From IMG/VR virus record IMGVR_UViG_3300043427_003402: 64,000 bases of DNA; one strand, written 5' to 3'. Below are positions 825 to 21,941 of this stretch, piece by piece (positions within the stretch are counted from its first letter, which is position 1; each line of letters starts with the position of its first letter). This stretch comes from a virus. The translations under genes were made by a program, and so were the position numbers. The notes beneath the pieces are model-generated. The model was not told the origin of the DNA. It made no database searches and saw only the letters and a list, made by a program, of their open reading frames with translations.

Positions 825-3800
825 GTGAGAATGAGTTTTGACCGTATTCTGTACAGCGAGTCACCGAGCGCTCAAATGCGTGGCACGCACCGCTGCGACT
901 CGACAATTAGCGAGCTAGTTACCAAGTTAACCCGGCACATTGTGTCGGCCCGAAAAGATACCGTCGGCCTGTACTCTTTTTGCCTGTTCGATGGTATTGG
1001 GCGCAAAACTGTTAACGCCAAGTCGGTCGAAGCTATCGTATTAGACTTTGACAACACTGAGGTACGCCAAGCCGGAGGGATACCGAACGGCCAAGTCGCT
1101 AAGCTGGGAAACATGGTTGACCCTCCGGTAAATCCGGAACAACTCGAGGAGCTTTTACGTGCTCGGAACATTCACTCTATCGTGACTACGTCGTATAACC
1201 ACAAGCCAGAGTGGCCTAAGTTCCGCGTCATCGTGTTTGTTACTGAGTCGATTCCCGTGCACGCCTACCAACACGTGGTAGGGGACTTCCTTACCGCATC
1301 CGGCATCGCACAGGGCCAACTAATCACTGGGCTTGATCCGTCTTGTGTCCAGGCTACCCGGCTTTACTATTACCCTTCCTGCCCCGCTGAGCGCCTCGGC
1401 GACGCCTACGCTGTGTACATTGAGGGCGAGGACTACGCCCCCGACGCGACGCCCTTCATCAATCAGCCTCGCGGCACAATCGGCGGCTCACCCACCGCCC
1501 CCTCCAACTCCCGTTCACCCCAATGGACCCAGGACCAAATAGCAAGGTACTTCGACCGCGCTATGCCCCACTTAGCACCACGTGTACGCGAGGCACAGGA
1601 ACGCGGCGGCTCCGAGATCCGGGTTCCTTGCCCTATTCACCACGGTGACGGCAACAATTTCGCCTTCTCCACCGGCAACGGTCTTTGGCGGTGTTTCTCC
1701 CAGTGCCCTTCGATGGGCATCATGGGCGGCGGTATGTATGCCCTCCACTACTACTGGCGCAAGATGAACGCCCAACCCGGCACCCCCGAAATGCCTTACC
1801 GCGACACCCGCGTCGAACTGGACGCTTGGCTCGGTCCGCCTATCCGCCCCGATGCCCCGCAAGAGCTCCAATCCGTGGTGCACATCGCCGCCCCTAGTTC
1901 CGTCCCCTCGTCTGCGCTCGTTTCGATTACGACGCATTCCGCACCGCGCTCCGCCCCTTCCTTCCCTTCCACCGCTGTTGATGAGGACGACGTTACTGTG
2001 CCGTCTTTGGCTTCGCTCACTTCTTCGTACGCTTCCGCTTCCGCTTCCCGTCATGGCTCCCCTTCCATCCGCCTCCATTCCCTCGAAGACGGTGCCGCCG
2101 AACGCGCCGAACGCGTCTACGATCTTTTCGGCACCCGTATCAACACGGTCAAGCACGACCTTGACGAGAACGGGACGTACCTTCGTCAGCTGACGGGCTC
2201 CGGTGACCGCCAATCCATTCGCAACGTGGAGATTTCACCTCAACCGATTTGGATCAGCCGCGCCGGTAAAGACCCGAACACTGGTTTGAAGTGGTACAAA
2301 ATAAATTACCGCGACGGCTCCGGGACCGAATCAGCAGTTTGGACAAAGCTGGATGACCTAAATCGACAAGACTTTACAAAACTTAAAAATTTGGGTGTCG
2401 CAAGCAAGTATCGCCCCGACATCTCCGAGTACTTCAACAACGCAGCGCACGCTTACGACGAGGTCAACGATTACGTGCCAGTGACCGAAGCTTTCGGCTG
2501 GCAACCGCTTCCTGGTGCGAAGACGGTCACCGACGCAGCGCTCGTCCTCTACAACGGGGACGCGGACACTGGCGCTTGCCCGATGACGGTGGTAGCCCCT
2601 TCCATCCTCACTGCTTCTCAAGGCGACCGTGAGACGTGGGTCAACCTGCTACGGGATATGGCGGCTGAACCCTTCCACGACTTTTGCGTGGCGTGGGCCT
2701 TCCTTGGTCTCTCCGCCGCCTCTCCGATCGTCAGCCGCCTCCAGATGCGCAACCCCTTGCTAATGTGCGCGTATCGCACCAGCGCGGGTAAGTCTACGCT
2801 CGCCAACTTGGCCCTCGCTTTGTGGACCAACCCGACCGACAGCACGTTGCCTGCTGACACGACCAACAAAGGTGCTGAGGACCTCATTGTAAAGCGCCCT
2901 GAGCTGCCCGTCCTCGTCGAGGAGTTTCAGCGCGTGGCCCGTGACAACCCCAAAGACGTCAACCGCTTCCTTTACGCCATGGCCAACGGCCAGCGCCGCG
3001 TCACCTCGAGCCGTGACTTGCAGCACCGGGGCGGTGAAGTGCGCAAGGGGTCTGTGCTGTTCGTCACCGAAGATGATCTAAGCAGTCAATTTCAGCAAGG
3101 CGCCAGCGTGCGTGTGTTGGTCATGACGGATCGCCCTTTGCCAGAGAAGACAGGCGCACACTGGTCTCAAAGAATTAAAGCGGTCGCTGACCGGCACTTC
3201 GGCGTGCTGGGCCCCGAGCTGGAGGCGCAGTATACTCGCAACTTGCGCATGTACTTGATCGAACACCAATCGCTGGTCAATCGGGTACGTAAAGAGGACG
3301 CACCGTTTGACGGGGATGATGTGAGCGCGATTGCCATGATGGGTTTTGGCCTGCGCCTTTTGTCGCGTTTGACGGGCGTAACGTTACCGGCAGAGGAAAC
3401 AATGCAGTACTTAATTGACACGGTGCGTGGCACGCGTGCAGTTGAGCGCGAAAATACGGATCTTAGGGATCAAATCTTCGCAGAGTTGATAATGTCAATA
3501 ACACAGTCTGACTGGTTGTCGATGGACGGAACGACTGAAGTTGCTTATGTGCCCAACCGAGGTCCTATAGCGGTACGGGGCAGGCAACTGATGCACCCGG
3601 ACGTGAGCGAGATGGAAATCTTCCTTCAAAGCGCACTGTTCCAAGACCTCATACGAAGACATCAAATTCACAACGTCAACAAGTTGGTTGACGCCTGGCT
3701 TCAAAAAGGTTTTCTTGCGGCGAACCCTGCTCGTCAAAACACCCGCGCCAGGTGGCACCGCAAGAACATCAACGGTCTCAGCAAGACAGATTTCAAGCAC

Positions 3801-3860
3801 GAAGGCGCCTACGTCTATCTTGTCACACCTTTGGGGATGCAGTTCGCCGATAGACATTAG
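825..3860 (+). CDS. Primase-helicase: N-terminal AEP-like primase, CHC2-type Zn finger, DUF927-like region and SF3-like helicase
   Basis: LDFDN and TTSYNH..KFRV primase-like motifs; CPIH..WRCFSQC; Walker A YRTSAGKST, Walker B VLVEE, NG-x-RR motif. Confidence 0.8.
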   Translation: MRMSFDRILYSESPSAQMRGTHRCDSTISELVTKLTRHIVSARKDTVGLYSFCLFDGIGRKTVNAKSVEAIVLDFDNTEVRQAGGIPNGQVAKLGNMVDPPVNPEQLEELLRARNIHSIVTTSYNHKPEWPKFRVIVFVTESIPVHAYQHVVGDFLTASGIAQGQLITGLDPSCVQATRLYYYPSCPAERLGDAYAVYIEGEDYAPDATPFINQPRGTIGGSPTAPSNSRSPQWTQDQIARYFDRAMPHLAPRVREAQERGGSEIRVPCPIHHGDGNNFAFSTGNGLWRCFSQCPSMGIMGGGMYALHYYWRKMNAQPGTPEMPYRDTRVELDAWLGPPIRPDAPQELQSVVHIAAPSSVPSSALVSITTHSAPRSAPSFPSTAVDEDDVTVPSLASLTSSYASASASRHGSPSIRLHSLEDGAAERAERVYDLFGTRINTVKHDLDENGTYLRQLTGSGDRQSIRNVEISPQPIWISRAGKDPNTGLKWYKINYRDGSGTESAVWTKLDDLNRQDFTKLKNLGVASKYRPDISEYFNNAAHAYDEVNDYVPVTEAFGWQPLPGAKTVTDAALVLYNGDADTGACPMTVVAPSILTASQGDRETWVNLLRDMAAEPFHDFCVAWAFLGLSAASPIVSRLQMRNPLLMCAYRTSAGKSTLANLALALWTNPTDSTLPADTTNKGAEDLIVKRPELPVLVEEFQRVARDNPKDVNRFLYAMANGQRRVTSSRDLQHRGGEVRKGSVLFVTEDDLSSQFQQGASVRVLVMTDRPLPEKTGAHWSQRIKAVADRHFGVLGPELEAQYTRNLRMYLIEHQSLVNRVRKEDAPFDGDDVSAIAMMGFGLRLLSRLTGVTLPAEETMQYLIDTVRGTRAVERENTDLRDQIFAELIMSITQSDWLSMDGTTEVAYVPNRGPIAVRGRQLMHPDVSEMEIFLQSALFQDLIRRHQIHNVNKLVDAWLQKGFLAANPARQNTRARWHRKNINGLSKTDFKHEGAYVYLVTPLGMQFADRH

Positions 3861-3869
3861 GAGGGCTCG

Positions 3870-4214
3870 ATGTCGCAGTGGCCGTCGTTCTTCAAGAAAC
3901 CCTTGAGTAGGCTCTTCGACAGCACCCCTGAAGTCACCCCAGAAGATGCCGAATTTTCTCCTCCCCGGCTCCGCCTCCTTCCCCGATTGACTGCCTTACT
4001 CAGCCACCCCTCAGCCCGGCCTCCATATCTGTTGTGGACGCTGATACTGACAGGGTGGCTGAGTTTGGGAGTCATCTTGGGCAGCTGGGGTACGATTCTC
4101 TTCCTGCTGTACATGCTTTTCGTACCGCGGCACCCTGCTCCGCCTGCTGCGCGCCCGCAGCCTCAGACGTTGAGCGTTTCGCTTCCAGCACAAAGTGCAA
4201 TTTGCACAAAATAA
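3870..4214 (+). CDS. Small hypothetical membrane protein
   Basis: AGGAGG SD upstream; two hydrophobic segments. Confidence 0.6.
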   Translation: MSQWPSFFKKPLSRLFDSTPEVTPEDAEFSPPRLRLLPRLTALLSHPSARPPYLLWTLILTGWLSLGVILGSWGTILFLLYMLFVPRHPAPPAARPQPQTLSVSLPAQSAICTK

Positions 4215-4217
4215 GTA

Positions 4218-4247
4218 TTGCATTTAGCCCAGCCTTTTTGCTAGCTT
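4218..4247 (+). promoter_or_regulatory. Sigma70-type promoter for the omegaRNA-tnpB unit
   Basis: TTGCAT (4218-4223), 18 nt, TGcTAGCTT (4239-4247); predicted start about 4253-4255, at the first base of the upstream scaffold. Confidence 0.5.
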
Positions 4248-4254
4248 AAGGCTT

Positions 4255-4348
4255 GGCCGGCCGGGCGGGTCGACCTCAATGCTCGCGGAGAGGGTAACCT
4301 CGAACCGAGAACCCAAAAGGGACGCCAACCTCAGGTTTTGCGCCTTAT
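4255..4348 (+). ncRNA. Upstream TnpB omegaRNA-like scaffold (4255-4328) plus first guide segment
   Basis: 62/74 nt identical to the scaffold overlapping the tnpB 3' end (5481-5554); substitutions are mostly in loops or compensatory. Confidence 0.75.
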
Positions 4349-4397
4349 GGGAAGCCGAAGAGCGGATCTGGCCACAGCGCGCCTTACGGGAAGCCAA
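4319..4397 (+). CRISPR. Miniature CRISPR-like repeat-spacer array upstream of tnpB (non-canonical)
   Basis: GGGACGCCAA (4319), GGGAAGCCGA (4349), GGGAAGCCAA (4388); 17-nt GCGCCTTAYGGGAAGCC at 4340-4356 and 4379-4395 separated by a unique 22-nt segment. Confidence 0.5.
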
Positions 4398-4402
4398 ACT
4401 TT

Positions 4403-5566
4403 GTGTATCAAACCTTCAAGTATCGACTCGAGCCTACCGAAGCGCAAAGAAGCACCTTTGCTCGTTTTGCGGGCAGCCGCCGTTTTATCTATAACTGGGC
4501 GCTTGCGGAGCGGATTGCCGTGTACGAACGTGATAAAGCGTCCTTGTCTTTTTTCAGCCAAAGCGCCGAGCTAACTAAGCTCAAACAGGAAGAAGACAAG
4601 GCTTGGCTAAACGAAGTGGACCGCAGAGTGCTGGTCTCGGGGCTCAAAGACTTGGACCTTGCTTTCCAAGCTTTCTTTCGACGGTTAAAGTCCAGCGAGA
4701 CGCCAGGCTTTCCGAAATTTAAAAAGAAATCACGCCGCGAGTCGTTTCGCTATGCGACAGGCGTCAAGGTACAGGACAATCGCGTTTATTTACCGAGTAT
4801 TGGCTGGGTCAAGCTGCGGCTTTCTCGCCCGGTGAAGGGTAAAATTTGTCAGGCCACGGTGCGGCAAGACGGCGAGCACTGGTTCGTTTGCCTCATCTGT
4901 GACGTACCTGCGCCCGAAGTAACCTCTGCGCCTACTGACGACGTGGTTGGCGTGGACGTCGGTATTAGCAGCTTTGCTCACCTGTCCGACGGCACGCAAA
5001 TCGAAAACCCGCGCTTCTTAGAGAGGGCTTTGGAGAAACTACAGGCGGCTCAGCAGGACTTGAGCCGCAAGACGCTGCGCTCGAATCGGTGGCGCAAGCA
5101 GGCCGCGAAGGTGGCGAAGCTGCATCGCAAAGTGCGAAATTCACGAACGGACTTTCTGCACAAGACATCCACTGACTTGGTCAAGCGCTATGACGCGCTT
5201 GCAGTCGAGACTTTGAGTATTGAAGATATGACGGTGACGGCTCACAGGAACCGGTCGCGAGCGATCGCTGACTCTAGCTGGGGCGCCTTCTTCGATAAAC
5301 TCGAATACAAAACTAAGTGGGCGGGTAAGCATTTGGTTCGCGTGGACCGGTACTACCCAAGCACTCAGTTGTGTTCATCTTGCGGTGCCCGCAAGGCCAT
5401 GCCCACCGACGTGCGCACTTATAAGTGTGACGCGTGCGGTTTGGTCATGGACCGCGATTTGAACGCAAGCCTAAACCTCAGGGCGGCAGGGCATGCCGTC
5501 CTTAATGCTCGCGGAGAGGGCGACCTTGAACCGAGAACCCGGAAGGGACGCCAATTGAACCTGTGA
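4403..5566 (+). CDS. tnpB: IS200/IS605-family RNA-guided endonuclease TnpB
   Basis: N-terminal FKYRLEPT..RFIYNWAL HTH; RuvC-I VGVDVG, RuvC-II VETL, Zn finger CSSC..CDAC, RuvC-III DRDLNASLNL; catalytic D/E/D all present. Confidence 0.95.
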   Translation: MYQTFKYRLEPTEAQRSTFARFAGSRRFIYNWALAERIAVYERDKASLSFFSQSAELTKLKQEEDKAWLNEVDRRVLVSGLKDLDLAFQAFFRRLKSSETPGFPKFKKKSRRESFRYATGVKVQDNRVYLPSIGWVKLRLSRPVKGKICQATVRQDGEHWFVCLICDVPAPEVTSAPTDDVVGVDVGISSFAHLSDGTQIENPRFLERALEKLQAAQQDLSRKTLRSNRWRKQAAKVAKLHRKVRNSRTDFLHKTSTDLVKRYDALAVETLSIEDMTVTAHRNRSRAIADSSWGAFFDKLEYKTKWAGKHLVRVDRYYPSTQLCSSCGARKAMPTDVRTYKCDACGLVMDRDLNASLNLRAAGHAVLNARGEGDLEPRTRKGRQLNL

Positions 5567-5614
5567 CCTACCCGCGTCAATTTCGGGAAGCCAATTGCCA
5601 TCCATCTCTTAACC
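5481..5614 (+). ncRNA. Downstream omegaRNA scaffold overlapping the tnpB 3' end, with guide, extra repeat and second guide
   Basis: Canonical position; hairpins GGGCGGCA/UGCCGUCC, AGG-GCGA-CCU, CCC-GGAA-GGG; GGGACGCCAATTG (5545) recurs as GGGAAGCCAATTG (5585). Confidence 0.75.
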
Positions 5615-5734
5615 AAAAGTAAACATTTGTTAACTTAATCTTTACTCTATTGACCTGCTGTCCCACTACTGTTAGTATGCTGAAAGGTTGGATTTGGTAG
5701 AATTTATTGGTTAAATTGCCTGTAGCGTGGTAGG

Positions 5735-7966
5735 GTGTTTTGGGCCGCGCTACGGGGTAGCGAGAGAGGTTTGGGTATGGTGCTGCAAACTGCGTCGGAA
5801 CCTGCTGACTTAAGCCCGCAGGGGGCTGTGGTTCCCCCTTACATTCAGGTGGTGTACGACTTCTCGTTTCTGCGTTTGTTTTTCAACGCTAACGCCCGCT
5901 GGGTAGGGCCGGCGGTCAGTGGGTTCGACATCGAGACCGAAGGCTTGTTGAATCCCCACGACGGCGAGGTAGCGACAATCCAGATTGAGATGTCTGGCCG
6001 GTGCTGGGTGGTGCACGTCCGGGCACCGGGTACTTTGTTGGACGTGCCGGATGTAGAATTGCTGCGCGCGTACCTTGAGGCGAACGAGGTGTGCAAGGTC
6101 ATCCACAACGCCAAGTTCGAGTTGAAGTGGATGATGAAGTACTTCGGCCTCGGCCTGCACGTGGACAACTTCCACGACACGATTATTGCCGAGTACATTT
6201 TGGCGGCGGGCTTCGGCTTCGGCGTACCATCGACGACCAGCTTCGAGTTTGACAGCAGCATCCTCGGCTTGGGCCAAGTGATGGCGCGCCGGTATAGTGT
6301 TGAGATGGACAAGGATGAAGCGCTGCGGGTTAGTTTCCGGCGCCACGGCTTGCTGGAAACCATACCGGCACCCAAGGACCCGTTACGGGACCGCAGCGAA
6401 ACTTGCCAAGTGGATGACTGCCCACGGGCACCGCGGTGGTTGGCGGGCGGCGCTCGGCAGTATCAGATTTGTGATTATCACCGCGAGAACAAGCACGAGG
6501 TCAAGGCTTTGAAGGCCTTGCGCCGGTGGGATGACTACCCAGAAAGGCCACAGCCGGGGGCCAAGATGTTTGGTGACTTGAGCGCTCGGCAGGTGTTGTA
6601 CGCGGCCTTCGACGTGCTGTATATGCCGCAGCTGTACGTTGCGCAGGTGCAAGAGATGAACAACCACGTGGGCTTGCGGGGTGATCGCCCGTATCCTGCG
6701 CTGTTCCGTTTGGACTGCCAAGTGGCAGAGTGTTTGGCGCGTATGGAACTGCGGGGTATCCCCATCGACCGGCGCCAGGCGTTTAAGACGCATCGCACGC
6801 TGATGTGGCAGGCGGACACGTTGCGCCAAGAGATTGTAGAGGCGTTGCGGTTACCGGGTGATACGGAAGACATCAATCCTGGTAGCCGGGATCAGATGTT
6901 ACCGCGGCTGGCGCAGTTGGGGATCAATCTGCCGGATTACCGCAGCGCCAGCTTGGAGCGCGCGGCTAGCCACCCGGTGATTCGTAAGTTGTTGACGTGG
7001 AAGCAGGTCGAGAAGCTCAGCACGTTCACCAAGACGCTGTTGTTGGAAGCGCACCCGAAGACGGATTGTGTGCACAGTAACTTCAACCAGACCAAGACCG
7101 CCACGGGTCGCTTGAGCAGCAGCGCGCCCAACTTCCAGAACATCCCAAGCAAAAGCAAGCTGTCTGCGGAGATCCGTAAGTGCGTAATGGCGCGTCCGGG
7201 ACGCGTTTTGGTCATTGCGGATTACAGTAACATCGAAGTGCGAATAATTGCAGAAGTGACACGCGACGAGAATCTGGTGCGCTTGTTCAACGAAGACAAG
7301 GACATGCACTGCATGACGGCGGCGTATATGATGGGGGTCTCGTACGACGAAATGTACCGCAAGTACAAGATTGAAAAGCTGCCGGAGTTCATCAAGGCGC
7401 GTAACAACAGCAAGGTGCCTAACTTCGGGTTGGGGTACAAGGCTAGCGTGGACAAGTTGCGTACAATGGCGTGGGTGCAATACGGGCTGGACTGGACTGA
7501 GGCAGAGGCCGCCGAACAGCACCGCAAGTGGTTTGAGTTGTACCCTGGCGTGGGTCACTGGCACACACGGGAGCAGGCGACAGTCCGTGACGGGAAGGGC
7601 CCGGTCACGGTTGAGAACGCGTTGGGCCGTCGCCGCACGATGCAGCGCCGGATCACGGTGACCCCGAACGCCAAGGCACTCGAACGCGGCGAGCAGCCGT
7701 ACTCGAAGGGCGCGTTGCCGGCGGTGTTGAACTTCCCGATTCAATCGGCGTCGGCAGAGATGACCAAACGCGCGATGGCGACGTTGAGCCGGGAAGTGGA
7801 CGTGATCCTGCAGGTGCATGACGAATTGGTTGTGGAGTGTGATGAGGCGGACGCAGACCGCGTGTCGCAGCTTGTGCACGACGCGATGGTCAAAAGTGGT
7901 GAGGGCATCCTGACGGTCGTTCCAAACGTGGTCGAACCGATGGTGAGTAAGTTCTGGAAGAAATAG
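5735..7966 (+). CDS. polA: Family A DNA polymerase with 3'-5' exonuclease (likely start ATG 5777)
   Basis: ExoI FDIETEG, ExoII HNAKFE, ExoIII YAAFD; TGRLSS..PNFQNIP; motif A ADYSNIE; motif B R..SKVPNFGLGY; motif C QVHDEL. Confidence 0.95.
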   Translation: MFWAALRGSERGLGMVLQTASEPADLSPQGAVVPPYIQVVYDFSFLRLFFNANARWVGPAVSGFDIETEGLLNPHDGEVATIQIEMSGRCWVVHVRAPGTLLDVPDVELLRAYLEANEVCKVIHNAKFELKWMMKYFGLGLHVDNFHDTIIAEYILAAGFGFGVPSTTSFEFDSSILGLGQVMARRYSVEMDKDEALRVSFRRHGLLETIPAPKDPLRDRSETCQVDDCPRAPRWLAGGARQYQICDYHRENKHEVKALKALRRWDDYPERPQPGAKMFGDLSARQVLYAAFDVLYMPQLYVAQVQEMNNHVGLRGDRPYPALFRLDCQVAECLARMELRGIPIDRRQAFKTHRTLMWQADTLRQEIVEALRLPGDTEDINPGSRDQMLPRLAQLGINLPDYRSASLERAASHPVIRKLLTWKQVEKLSTFTKTLLLEAHPKTDCVHSNFNQTKTATGRLSSSAPNFQNIPSKSKLSAEIRKCVMARPGRVLVIADYSNIEVRIIAEVTRDENLVRLFNEDKDMHCMTAAYMMGVSYDEMYRKYKIEKLPEFIKARNNSKVPNFGLGYKASVDKLRTMAWVQYGLDWTEAEAAEQHRKWFELYPGVGHWHTREQATVRDGKGPVTVENALGRRRTMQRRITVTPNAKALERGEQPYSKGALPAVLNFPIQSASAEMTKRAMATLSREVDVILQVHDELVVECDEADADRVSQLVHDAMVKSGEGILTVVPNVVEPMVSKFWKK

Positions 7967-20390: not shown

Positions 20391-21214
20391 GCGACATGCT
20401 GACACCTCGGCACCGTTACAACCGCGCGGCCATGAGTGTCGGCCTGCCCCCGGATCTTGACGGTTTAACTAACCGAGCAGCACCCGACGCGCTGACGCAA
20501 ATGGTAGAGACCGGCTTACGCGCGTGTGTTGGTGGGCAAGCCACGCGCAAACCGAAAGCCAAAGACAAAGCCCGGGGTAAGCTTATCGTTGGGCACGCAG
20601 ACTTCGCCCGCGCGTACGATCTCTACAAACAACCAGGTGCGCGCAAAACGTTCGATGCCGTGCTGCTAGCGACCTTGAGTGTAACGGACGCCGCAAACGT
20701 GCTGCGCGAAAAGGAAGCGTTTGTGCAGCTCTACGCCGACTGCTTTTTTGACATTTCGGTTTTCGAGGGCCCCACGGATCGGTTGACGTACCTCGATGCG
20801 GTCTACCGCCGCGACCCGCAGTACGCCCAGTTGCTGCGCAACATGCTGTCGGTGCCGCTTGAGCAGTTGCTGTTTATTGCAAATAGTTCGACAGGCGAGC
20901 GCTTGGACCCCAAGACGGTACTTGAAGCGGGCATGTCTTTGCATTACAATTTCATGCGGTTGTTCTCGCAGGTGAAACTAGAGACAATCATGTCGGCAGA
21001 CACGGACTCCGAAGATTACCGGCGGTTCAAGGAGATGTTCTCGATGGCGGTCACCGCGTCGAACTTGGCGCACAAGTTTGCTGACTCGCTGCTGAAGTAT
21101 GACTTGGATAAGGACCGCACCAACTTCTTGGACGAGTTTATTCTTAACCTGAGCAAGAGCAACCTTGCAGAGCACGTTTCTTTACCCGAAGCCGAAGACT
21201 TTGATATAATCTAA
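20387..21214 (+). CDS. Hypothetical protein
   Basis: GGAGG SD; overlaps the upstream stop codon. Confidence 0.65.
   Translation: MSDMLTPRHRYNRAAMSVGLPPDLDGLTNRAAPDALTQMVETGLRACVGGQATRKPKAKDKARGKLIVGHADFARAYDLYKQPGARKTFDAVLLATLSVTDAANVLREKEAFVQLYADCFFDISVFEGPTDRLTYLDAVYRRDPQYAQLLRNMLSVPLEQLLFIANSSTGERLDPKTVLEAGMSLHYNFMRLFSQVKLETIMSADTDSEDYRRFKEMFSMAVTASNLAHKFADSLLKYDLDKDRTNFLDEFILNLSKSNLAEHVSLPEAEDFDII
21202..21210 (+). promoter_or_regulatory. Consensus extended -10 promoter element
   Basis: TGATATAAT directly upstream of the orphan omegaRNA and HU-like gene. Confidence 0.5.
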
Positions 21215-21382
21215 GGGTCGGGCGATAACCAAGTCCGGCAACGGTAGAAATAAAATGGTATACCGCAGGGCATGCGGGAATTTAAGCTCGCGGAGAGGCT
21301 TAGCATTAGCGGCCTTGTCGAAACGAGAATCCCCCTGATTTAGCTGGGGGGGGGAAAGTCAAAGAGCTCTTATAAATTACGA
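21215..21382 (+). ncRNA. Orphan TnpB omegaRNA / non-autonomous IS200/IS605 right end
   Basis: Shares GCAGGGCATGC, GCTCGCGGAGAGG and GAANCGAGAA with the tnpB scaffolds; ends GAAT-CCCCC-loop-GGGGG-AAAG-TCAA (21362), the IS608-type right-end layout. Confidence 0.7.
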
Positions 21383-21389
21383 GGTTTGT

Positions 21390-21941
21390 ATGCCGCCACG
21401 TTTTTCCCTGTACAAGGCGCCCGTCACTCTCGGGTTCACCGAGGTGGAAGCGATCCTATCCGAGCGCACCGGTATCCGCCGCGACGACATCCGCCTTGTG
21501 CTGGACGAATTTTTCTACCTAGTCTTCGAGGCACTGCGCCGCGGGCACAACATTCGCTTGGCGCACATAGGCTTCTTCAACATCGTACGCACCTGGCCCC
21601 GGCTGTCGTGGAACTCTACGACCGGCAAACTGCAGTTCGTGCCGTCCGTGCATCAGGTCGGTTTTCGCGTGGCGCGCAGTACGTTGAATAAGATATTCGC
21701 TTACTTTACCAAGGGCCTTGAGCCAGTGGCACGTGAAGACTACGCTGAAGAAGTGTTACCTTATCACCTTGAGTACGCACTGCGTTCTGCGGACAAGCGG
21801 CTGTCACGAAACATGTTGGTCGATATGGAGGACTACGCGTTTTTGAAGCAGCTCGTAGAAGAGCTAAAAGAAAAAAGCCCAGAACCACCATCCTCTACCT
21901 CGTCCGAAGACGAGGTAGAAGGTGAGGAGTTGGTTACCTGA
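21390..21941 (+). CDS. HU/IHF-like DNA-binding protein with C-terminal extension
   Basis: LSERTGI..V..VLDEF..L..G..IRL..IGFF..R..WNSTTG...V.FR. Confidence 0.75.
   Translation: MPPRFSLYKAPVTLGFTEVEAILSERTGIRRDDIRLVLDEFFYLVFEALRRGHNIRLAHIGFFNIVRTWPRLSWNSTTGKLQFVPSVHQVGFRVARSTLNKIFAYFTKGLEPVAREDYAEEVLPYHLEYALRSADKRLSRNMLVDMEDYAFLKQLVEELKEKSPEPPSSTSSEDEVEGEELVT

Follow-up and report, generated by a model that had tools for sequence, protein, structure and literature searches.

A transposase-less tnpB with flanking and solo omegaRNA scaffolds in a phage genome, a candidate homing module

We analysed a 64,000-nucleotide (nt) stretch of viral DNA (IMG/VR record IMGVR_UViG_3300043427_003402; the window) and in particular the locus at 4218–5614, where the gene for a TnpB RNA-guided nuclease lies between two copies of an omegaRNA scaffold. 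We favour, with a probability of about one half, the reading that this locus is a module of the IS200/IS605 insertion sequence (IS) family without transposase and left end, accompanied by solo right-end derivatives and acting as a selfish homing nuclease. The upstream 74-nt element would be a solo right-end/omegaRNA scaffold, a paralogue like the orphan scaffold 16 kb away, which resembles a palindrome-associated transposable element (PATE). Its origin would be an earlier insertion, tandem or nested, or else recombination involving a sister copy that had diverged. TnpB would be expected to bind both flanking scaffolds, and the downstream RNA would carry a guide antisense to transfer RNA (tRNA). 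With this omegaRNA, TnpB would cut co-infecting genomes that carry a transposon-associated motif (TAM) and the flank sequence, whereupon the module would be copied into the cut genome by recombination. Precedents exist for both parts of this scheme: PATE-like elements whose omegaRNAs need service in trans have been described (PMC10055086), and TnpA-independent spread of IS605 elements by TnpB cleavage of unoccupied alleles has been described for plasmids and proposed for phages (PMC13565253). The features concerned are as follows.

4218–4247, plus strand: weak promoter-like sequence TTGCAT-N18-TGcTAGCTT, with 3/6 and 3/6 matches and a TGn
4240–4328, plus strand: upstream omegaRNA-like scaffold, short form (core repeat 4255–4328), from repeat identity and a covariance match
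4329–4339, plus strand: unique segment of 11 nt in the upstream guide position, followed by terminus repeat R1
4340–4358, plus strand: R1, scaffold-terminus repeat, GCGCCTTATGGGAAGCCGA, starting 11 nt after the end of the upstream scaffold
4359–4378, plus strand: S1, unique segment of 20 nt between R1 and R2
4379–4397, plus strand: R2, scaffold-terminus repeat, GCGCCTTACGGGAAGCCAA
4403–5566, plus strand: tnpB, ISDra2-like RNA-guided nuclease of 387 amino acids, GTG start, TGA at 5564–5566
5465–5554, plus strand: downstream omegaRNA scaffold, short form, overlapping the final 100 nt of tnpB, from a covariance match
5555–5572, plus strand: guide-position stretch of 18 nt, TAGGTCACAGGTTCAA, exact antisense of a conserved tRNA variable loop/T-arm
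5574–5594, plus strand: R3, scaffold-terminus repeat, GCGTCAATTTCGGGAAGCCAA
5595–5614, plus strand: flank that would be the guide if the scaffold ended at 5594; no second match in the window
21202–21365, plus strand: orphan long-form omegaRNA scaffold (scaffold proper 21246–21365), GAAT-hairpin-AAAGTCAA, intergenic

In support of this reading, relatives with tnpA or a remnant of it provide an independent definition of the scaffold family. The nearest TnpB is 58% identical to that of the window, and the relatives fetched with their flanks (54–58% identical) include L177, which has a Y1 transposase gene and tnpB, and L084, which has a tnpA remnant. Their 3′ ends share three helices and a tail, with ten of 32 pairs changed on both sides and the pairing kept. 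The family fold maps on the published layout of the ISDra2 omegaRNA (PMC10097598): stem 1 with the pseudoknot-acceptor loop, stem 2, stem 3a/3b, stem 4 with a tetraloop, and a tail that pairs back. A covariance model was trained on five distant relatives and the orphan copy, with neither of the tnpB-flanking copies used, and was run over the 64-kb window with filters off. Exactly three matches were obtained, the next best having an E value of 0.55.

21246–21365, plus strand: orphan scaffold, 91.6 bits, E 1e-26 (this sequence is in the training set)
5465–5597, plus strand: downstream scaffold, 55 bits, E 3e-15
4240–4331, plus strand: upstream scaffold, 37.4 bits, E 1e-9

Both tnpB-flanking copies are shortened, so that stem 3 is AGG-GNRA-CCT and stem 4 is CCC-NNAA-GGG. 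Rfam has no match for the locus, an exact-pattern scan found no close scaffold relatives in viral contigs, and the five matches in 185,579 species genomes all arise by chance in GC-rich coding DNA. In the collections searched, no relative carries this scaffold, and no scaffold–tnpB–scaffold synteny was found.

The first-pass annotation had reported that a 74-nt scaffold in the tnpB stop region recurs upstream of the gene. The direct repeat (4255–4328 and 5481–5554) is indeed 62/74 identical without gaps, and the model matches both copies. The downstream scaffold overlaps the 3′ end of tnpB as claimed, but it ends 10 nt before the stop codon and does not span it. The upstream copy comprises stem 1 with its pseudoknot-acceptor loop, stem 2, an AGG-GTAA-CCT stem 3, a CCC-AAAA-GGG stem 4 and the tail ACGCCAA. 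The annotation also held that the differences largely preserve the fold. Relative to the downstream copy, the three changes named by it are present (A–U to C–G at stem positions 8/14, a GCGA to GTAA loop on AGG/CCT and a GGAA to AAAA loop on CCC/GGG), but an additional G–U to C–A change at positions 3/19 breaks one stem-1 pair. The upstream copy retains 20/21 pairs, counting the stems and three pseudoknot pairs, despite 12 substitutions. When 12 random substitutions were simulated on the downstream sequence, 0.9% (uniform) or 3% (transition-biased) of the trials did as well. Where relatives permit polarising in the alignment, the stem-1 changes fall on the branch of the upstream copy. There is thus fair evidence, on comparative grounds, that both flanking sequences evolved as folded RNAs. 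We also tried the clustering of substitutions as a sign of constraint, and it is not significant (P 0.13–0.40). The compensating changes may predate arrival if the upstream copy came from a sister IS already 16% diverged; because of this, fold retention alone does not imply present selection on the upstream copy.

Homology between the flanking copies begins about 15 nt before stem 1 (near 4240), further 5′ than first stated, and it includes the 3′ codons of tnpB, with a 23-residue in-frame match at 78%. Because the homology covers the tnpB 3′ end, the upstream copy is a right-end piece of a tnpB element; a left-end identity is ruled out by the homology to the tnpB 3′ coding end and the right end. 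Since tandem tnpB pairs exist in other viral contigs, an insertion in tandem from which the upstream gene body was later lost would be a realistic route. Such pairs, with one scaffold match per gene, were seen at L054:669–1906 and 3007–4080 and on L011–L013. The sigma-70-like promoter that had been proposed for the upstream copy, at 4218–4247, is weaker than claimed: beyond its modest matches, it is not called by a sigma-70 scan, and it shares homology in part with the 3′ coding sequence of tnpB. Read-through would transcribe the upstream scaffold with or without it, because the whole block from 825 to 7966 is co-directional. TnpB probably still binds the upstream RNA, to judge from the shared direction of transcription and the presence of every structural element of the minimal scaffold. 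The 16-mer that starts at 4329, in the upstream guide position, has 13 IMG/VR matches in unrelated contexts, which is background.

The protein itself looks catalytically competent by sequence comparison. Its Pfam domains are HTH_OrfB_IS605 (PF12323), OrfB_IS605 (PF01385; RuvC) and Cas12f1-like_TNB (PF07282; zinc ribbon), with E values of 3e-15, 6e-30 and 7e-23, respectively, every one of which passes the curated cut-off. Against the ISDra2 TnpB structures (PDB 8bf8/8exa), 359 residues align with an E value of 2e-83. The three RuvC catalytic residues, already noted as intact in the first-pass annotation, are D185, E269 and D352, aligned with D191, E278 and D361 of ISDra2. TldR proteins, the nuclease-dead repressors derived from TnpB, some of them phage-encoded, are recognized by loss of the RuvC catalytic residues, and here the triad is intact. 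The TAM-contact residues differ from those of ISDra2, with F77 replaced by R, Q80 by V, and T123/N124 deleted. TTGAT, which these residues read in ISDra2, is therefore unlikely as the TAM. In the relatives, the tnpB reading frame ends at a TAG within a longer stem 3, and tnpB here continues through the short scaffold; since the relatives' stop codon lay in the lost part of stem 3, the gene reads on to the TGA at 5564–5566. A tblastn search found no second tnpB in the 64-kb window, and a metagenome scan gave one TnpB relative above 45% identity.

The right end of the downstream scaffold is taken as ...GGGACGCCAA at 5554, homologous to GGGGAGTGTCAA of the relatives, because the origin of the sequence switches at 5554/5555. 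The terminus reads GAAC-CCC GGAA GGG-ACG-CCAA. The stretch that follows, 5555–5572, is tRNA-derived. Its first 16 nt occur in more than 119 IMG/VR contigs, and in most of the 40 contexts listed they are antisense to a tRNA variable loop/T-arm; in cultured phages, all 18 nt are matched (18/18) within annotated tRNA-Lys and tRNA-Met genes, on the opposite strand. The tRNA-like stretch ends after 18–19 nt, where R3 follows. No tRNA gene was found in the window by ARAGORN, nor beside the polymerase gene of related phages. The bases before the tRNA target would be AGGAN or GGGNN, unlike the TAMs known to us. This antisense guide position is a lead favouring programmed guides; it is accounted for just as well as the relic of a former insertion site. 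A guide RNA from this strand would complement the mature tRNA (variable loop and T-arm), not tRNA genes alone. TTGAACC occurs both at 5528–5534, at the scaffold junction after stem 3, and at 5555–5561, where the flank starts, and may be either coincidence or the trace of a duplication. The two tnpB flanks were also considered as halves of a single tRNA T-arm; the joined sequence has no match in viral contigs. Five of the six candidate guide-position 16-mers, all but the one at 5595–5614, were scanned against viral contigs, and the four that are not from tRNA match 3, 13, 18 and 0 times in unrelated contexts, at background level. Within the window, the guide-position sequences match nothing but themselves.

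Three terminus repeats of 19–21 nt accompany the two scaffold termini, with spacers of 11, 20 and 19 nt. They correspond to the 3′ strand of stem 4 and the pseudoknot tail, which is the crRNA-like (CRISPR RNA-like) part of the omegaRNA (PMC10097598). The R1/R2 alignment score was matched by 0/2000 shuffles, and GGGAAGCCAATTG in R3 repeats GGGACGCCAATTG 40 nt upstream with a score matched by 3/2000. The 16-mer of S1 has three IMG/VR matches, none longer than 17 nt, which is background. The GGGAAG of R2 sits where the ribosome-binding site of tnpB would be (GTG at 4403). By hand pairing, each repeat can form 10–12 base pairs (bp) with the CCC(G/A)(G/A)AAGGGACGC of the scaffold. R3 can pair with 5539–5552 as a long alternative stem 4, a fold that is not significant (z −1.6 against shuffles), and the covariance model aligns the downstream copy through this long-hairpin form (to 5597). 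A long terminal hairpin ending at 4358 or 5594 was rejected, with non-significant z scores of −1.4 and −1.6 and a tRNA junction at 5554/5555 that favours the short end. A simpler account of the repeats is that a phage-borne copy recombined with one that a host carried inside a tRNA gene; the product would have a new right end, then 18–19 nt of flank carried over, then the final 20 nt of the former right end. A recombinational history, rather than clean design, is suggested by the tRNA fragment, by the three repeats of the terminus and by the lack of any tRNA gene either here or next to PolA in relatives.

The element looks immobile by the TnpA route, judged from its sequence, because the window yielded no tnpA and no left-end hairpin before tnpB, and the right-end motifs have drifted. 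These absences agree with the first-pass annotation: a tblastn search with the L177 TnpA found no tnpA in the window (best E 0.33), and the region 4200–4402 has no left end like that of L176, where TTTAC is followed by AAAG and a hairpin (TTTAC...AAAG-CCCCCGCC...GGGG). The only hairpin in this region (4354–4389) is no better than shuffles (z +0.5). The right ends of the relatives have GAAT-hairpin-...GTCAA, whereas both tnpB-flanking scaffolds have GAAC/CCAA; the 3-bp hairpin and the CCAA end, in place of TCAA, are present as had been noted. That the element is domesticated does not follow from the missing tnpA, since most tnpB genes are without one (PMC10055086). Two relatives show other arrangements of ends. 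In L096, which is 54% identical, the 10 nt after the left TTAC (GCGGCGGTCG, 1290–1320) recur after the right end (GTCAA|GCGGCGGTCG, 2675–2700), as if a right end abutted a second left end or a copy of the target had been retained. At L082:1990–2003, on a 164-kb groundwater contig, a 55%-identical tnpB leaves no room for a left end, because it starts 8 nt past the stop of the preceding small open reading frame (ORF); it may represent a further case of immobilised tnpB, here on a large element that is possibly viral.

The orphan scaffold keeps GAAT/TCAA, unlike both tnpB-flanking scaffolds, and its right end is 80% identical to that of L177 over 72 nt. It is preceded by TGaTATAAT at 21202–21210 and followed by a gene for a DNA-binding protein (21390–21941). 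On its left, TTGAT (21201–21205) and a hairpin GTCGGGC/GTCCGGC are found, the latter unlike the right-end hairpin of the orphan. The tblastn search of the window found no tnpB near it. The orphan and the upstream copy each combine a right end and a full omegaRNA scaffold but lack a protein gene, as in PATE-like elements; the upstream copy has no left-end hairpin candidate for a mobilisable unit of this kind. The orphan "guide" would span the ribosome-binding site and start codon of the 21390–21941 gene.

The window is part of a tailed phage, encoding a tail sheath, a baseplate wedge protein, a helicase, a DUF927 primase-helicase and a family A polymerase (PolA). The identical TnpB protein is recorded on three contigs, the longest of 159,649 bases, and the genome that carries the locus is that of a myovirus of roughly 160 kb. 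The tnpB gene lies between the primase-helicase gene (825–3860) and the polymerase gene (5735–7966), on the same strand as the upstream scaffold and all genes of this block, and by composition it differs little from the phage genes. The locus was seen in one lineage, with a single retrieved copy identical across the 428 nt compared, and public phage genomes gave no DNA match to it. Phages with 63–65% identical PolA have no tnpB beside the polymerase gene, and neither these nor phages with 49% identical PolA have tnpB, scaffold or tRNA at the corresponding place; the DNA of PolA-related phages is too diverged to set insertion boundaries. Two further features lie near the locus. A 22-nt inverted repeat, 86% complementary with arms 43 nt apart, lies at 3988–4074 in a small ORF upstream. 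The sole promoter-like site called, TTGACC-17-TG-TAGTAT at 5650–5678, lies in an AT-rich spacer (40% GC) before the polymerase gene.

Several observations sit uneasily with the homing-module reading. No unoccupied allele or relative of the locus was found among the phages and collections searched. A right-end scaffold copy directly upstream of tnpB occurs only here among 78 viral tnpB loci, so that such an arrangement is rare. The retention of 20/21 pairs after 12 substitutions (P 0.009–0.03), together with the changes on the upstream copy's own branch, could indicate ongoing selection for a working RNA. The unique segments between the terminus repeats are guide-sized (19–20 nt), which a model of debris does not predict. 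Finally, both extra scaffolds are trimmed near the minimal 5′ edge, each with promoter-like sequence, which is tidy for debris in a streamlined phage genome. Debris is nevertheless what the upstream copy and the repeats would be if they were simply decaying and inactive, their folds having been retained while both copies diverged as working IS copies elsewhere. Most of the evidence for the homing module fits this account too, as do the lack of significant substitution clustering, the one broken stem-1 pair and the weak promoter. We consider it improbable all the same, since all stems and pseudoknot partners are intact and same-strand read-through would co-transcribe the copy with a compatible TnpB, whose binding would then be hard to avoid.

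The first-pass annotation favoured a phage-domesticated TnpB whose upstream, downstream and orphan scaffolds each carry their own programmed guide against host loci or competing phages. The phage context, the competent-looking tnpB and the retention of both folds bear this out in part, but the upstream guide is unique over 11 nt only, and four of the five guide 16-mers are at background level in viral contigs. Three cognate scaffolds for one intact nuclease, the preserved upstream fold, the phage-like composition of tnpB and a downstream guide position antisense to the T-arm of many phage tRNA genes would all suit such a system, and the phage would be immune to its own downstream guide because the window has no tRNA gene. 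However, the ISDra2 contacts to TTGAT have been substituted or lost, the bases before the tRNA target are unlike the TAMs known to us, no conserved synteny was found in the collections searched, and guides adjacent to a right end are plain flanking DNA in every IS of the IS200/IS605 family. We regard this reading as unlikely, and a weapon given several guides by design as less probable than a selfish homing nuclease that works independently of TnpA. A more specific proposal takes R1–R3 as crRNA-like units around guide-sized spacers, so that the locus would be a nascent guide array in an early split of the omegaRNA into a tracrRNA (trans-activating CRISPR RNA) and a crRNA. The repeats are statistically real, the 19- and 20-nt spacers include one of foreign (tRNA) origin, each repeat can be paired by hand over 10–12 bp with the scaffold, and the stem-4 tetraloop of ISDra2 is the natural junction of the crRNA-like and tracrRNA-like parts (PMC10097598). 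Intermediates of this type are described as TranC, transposon–CRISPR intermediates (Jin et al. 2025, cited in PMC13565253). Against such an array, the repeats number only three, are short and stand at irregular distances (11, 20 and 19 nt), folds with the long hairpin do not beat shuffles (z −1.4 and −1.6), the protein, at 387 residues, is a TnpB of the ordinary kind, no adaptation genes were seen among the four neighbouring ORFs scanned against Pfam, R2 doubles as the ribosome-binding region of tnpB, and recombination between a phage-borne and a host-borne IS would look the same. We hold this proposal to be very doubtful. The same low expectation attaches to its elaboration into a lytic-type myovirus that uses a nascent TnpB guide array, with one spacer against the tRNA T-arm and the third scaffold expressed elsewhere, against tRNA-bearing competitors or the host chromosome. 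Still fainter is the prospect that the upstream scaffold is a cis-regulatory leader site at which binding or 5′ processing by TnpB limits its own translation. Such regulation is conceivable because the scaffold shares the strand of tnpB and precedes its start by 75 nt, with R2 and the start codon just downstream; moreover, TnpB uses its RuvC site to cleave its own mRNA at the scaffold's 5′ edge, the 3′ flank staying attached, and tnpB mRNA feeds back negatively on cleavage (PMC10278001). A 5′ leader scaffold is without precedent, however: 0/77 other viral tnpB loci have one, and the orphan shows that solo scaffolds occur away from tnpB too.

If the extra scaffolds are loaded, this locus would be a natural case, in a virus, of one minimal TnpB served by several guide RNAs, with a bearing on the use of transposon nucleases by phage against phage and on the first origin of guide arrays from a transposon right end. 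Were the nascent array real, it would give a snapshot of the transition from omegaRNA to crRNA. Should the extra copies be debris, the locus would be a tnpB insertion of the ordinary transposase-less sort, remnants included, a case that is common and already understood. The naturally short scaffold, with no stem 3b and a 3-bp stem 4, supplies, already made, a compact omegaRNA for an enzyme closely homologous to the ISDra2 editor.

Among known systems, the TnpB is ISDra2-like by sequence and the ends are IS608-like. As in the ISDra2 TnpB/omegaRNA complex (PDB 8exa, 8h1j; PMC10097598), the RuvC triad and the zinc-finger cysteines are in place and the RNA has the same layout. Unlike ISDra2, the locus has no tnpA or left end that we could find, its TAM-reading residues differ, and two extra scaffold copies are present; stem 3b is missing by nature, as it is by design in the Trim2 RNA, and only 3 bp of stem 4 are left. 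The ends can be compared with those of the IS608 type, which we take to be GAAT/TCAA on the right and TTAC with AAAG on the left (the TnpA guide and cleavage motifs). GAAT-hairpin-...TCAA is shared by the 54–58% identical TnpB relatives and the orphan, and the left end of L176 has TTTAC and then AAAG, whereas the tnpB-flanking scaffolds have GAAC/CCAA with a 3-bp hairpin, and no left-end hairpin precedes tnpB. The orphan and the upstream copy resemble PATE-like elements (Meers et al. 2023, PMC10055086) in being gene-less right-end/omegaRNA units that would need TnpB in trans; they differ in that neither has a convincing left end, both are in a phage and one lies directly before the only tnpB. 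The resemblance to TranC (PDB 9jfo; Jin et al. 2025, cited in PMC13565253) lies in the idea of a crRNA-like unit arising by repetition of the omegaRNA 3′ part, which is exactly what the repeats here copy; the protein, however, is a plain TnpB (LaTranC matches its C-terminal part with E 1e-21), and the three repeats are irregular and form no array.

The phage setting recalls free-standing homing endonuclease genes, since a nuclease gene lies between conserved replication genes and is absent beside the polymerase gene in related phages. Like homing nucleases and the "non-restorative" homing of IS605 elements (PMC13565253), the module would in principle be able to cut the unoccupied allele of a co-infecting genome; in contrast to homing endonucleases, its recognition would be RNA-guided, and no unoccupied allele with a matching target was found. 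The component parts are therefore of known kinds, namely TnpB with its omegaRNA, PATE-type solo omegaRNA units and a phage-borne tnpB. What is unusual is their combination: scaffolds on both sides of the only tnpB together with a cognate orphan, a naturally minimised scaffold, terminus repeats and a guide position derived from tRNA.

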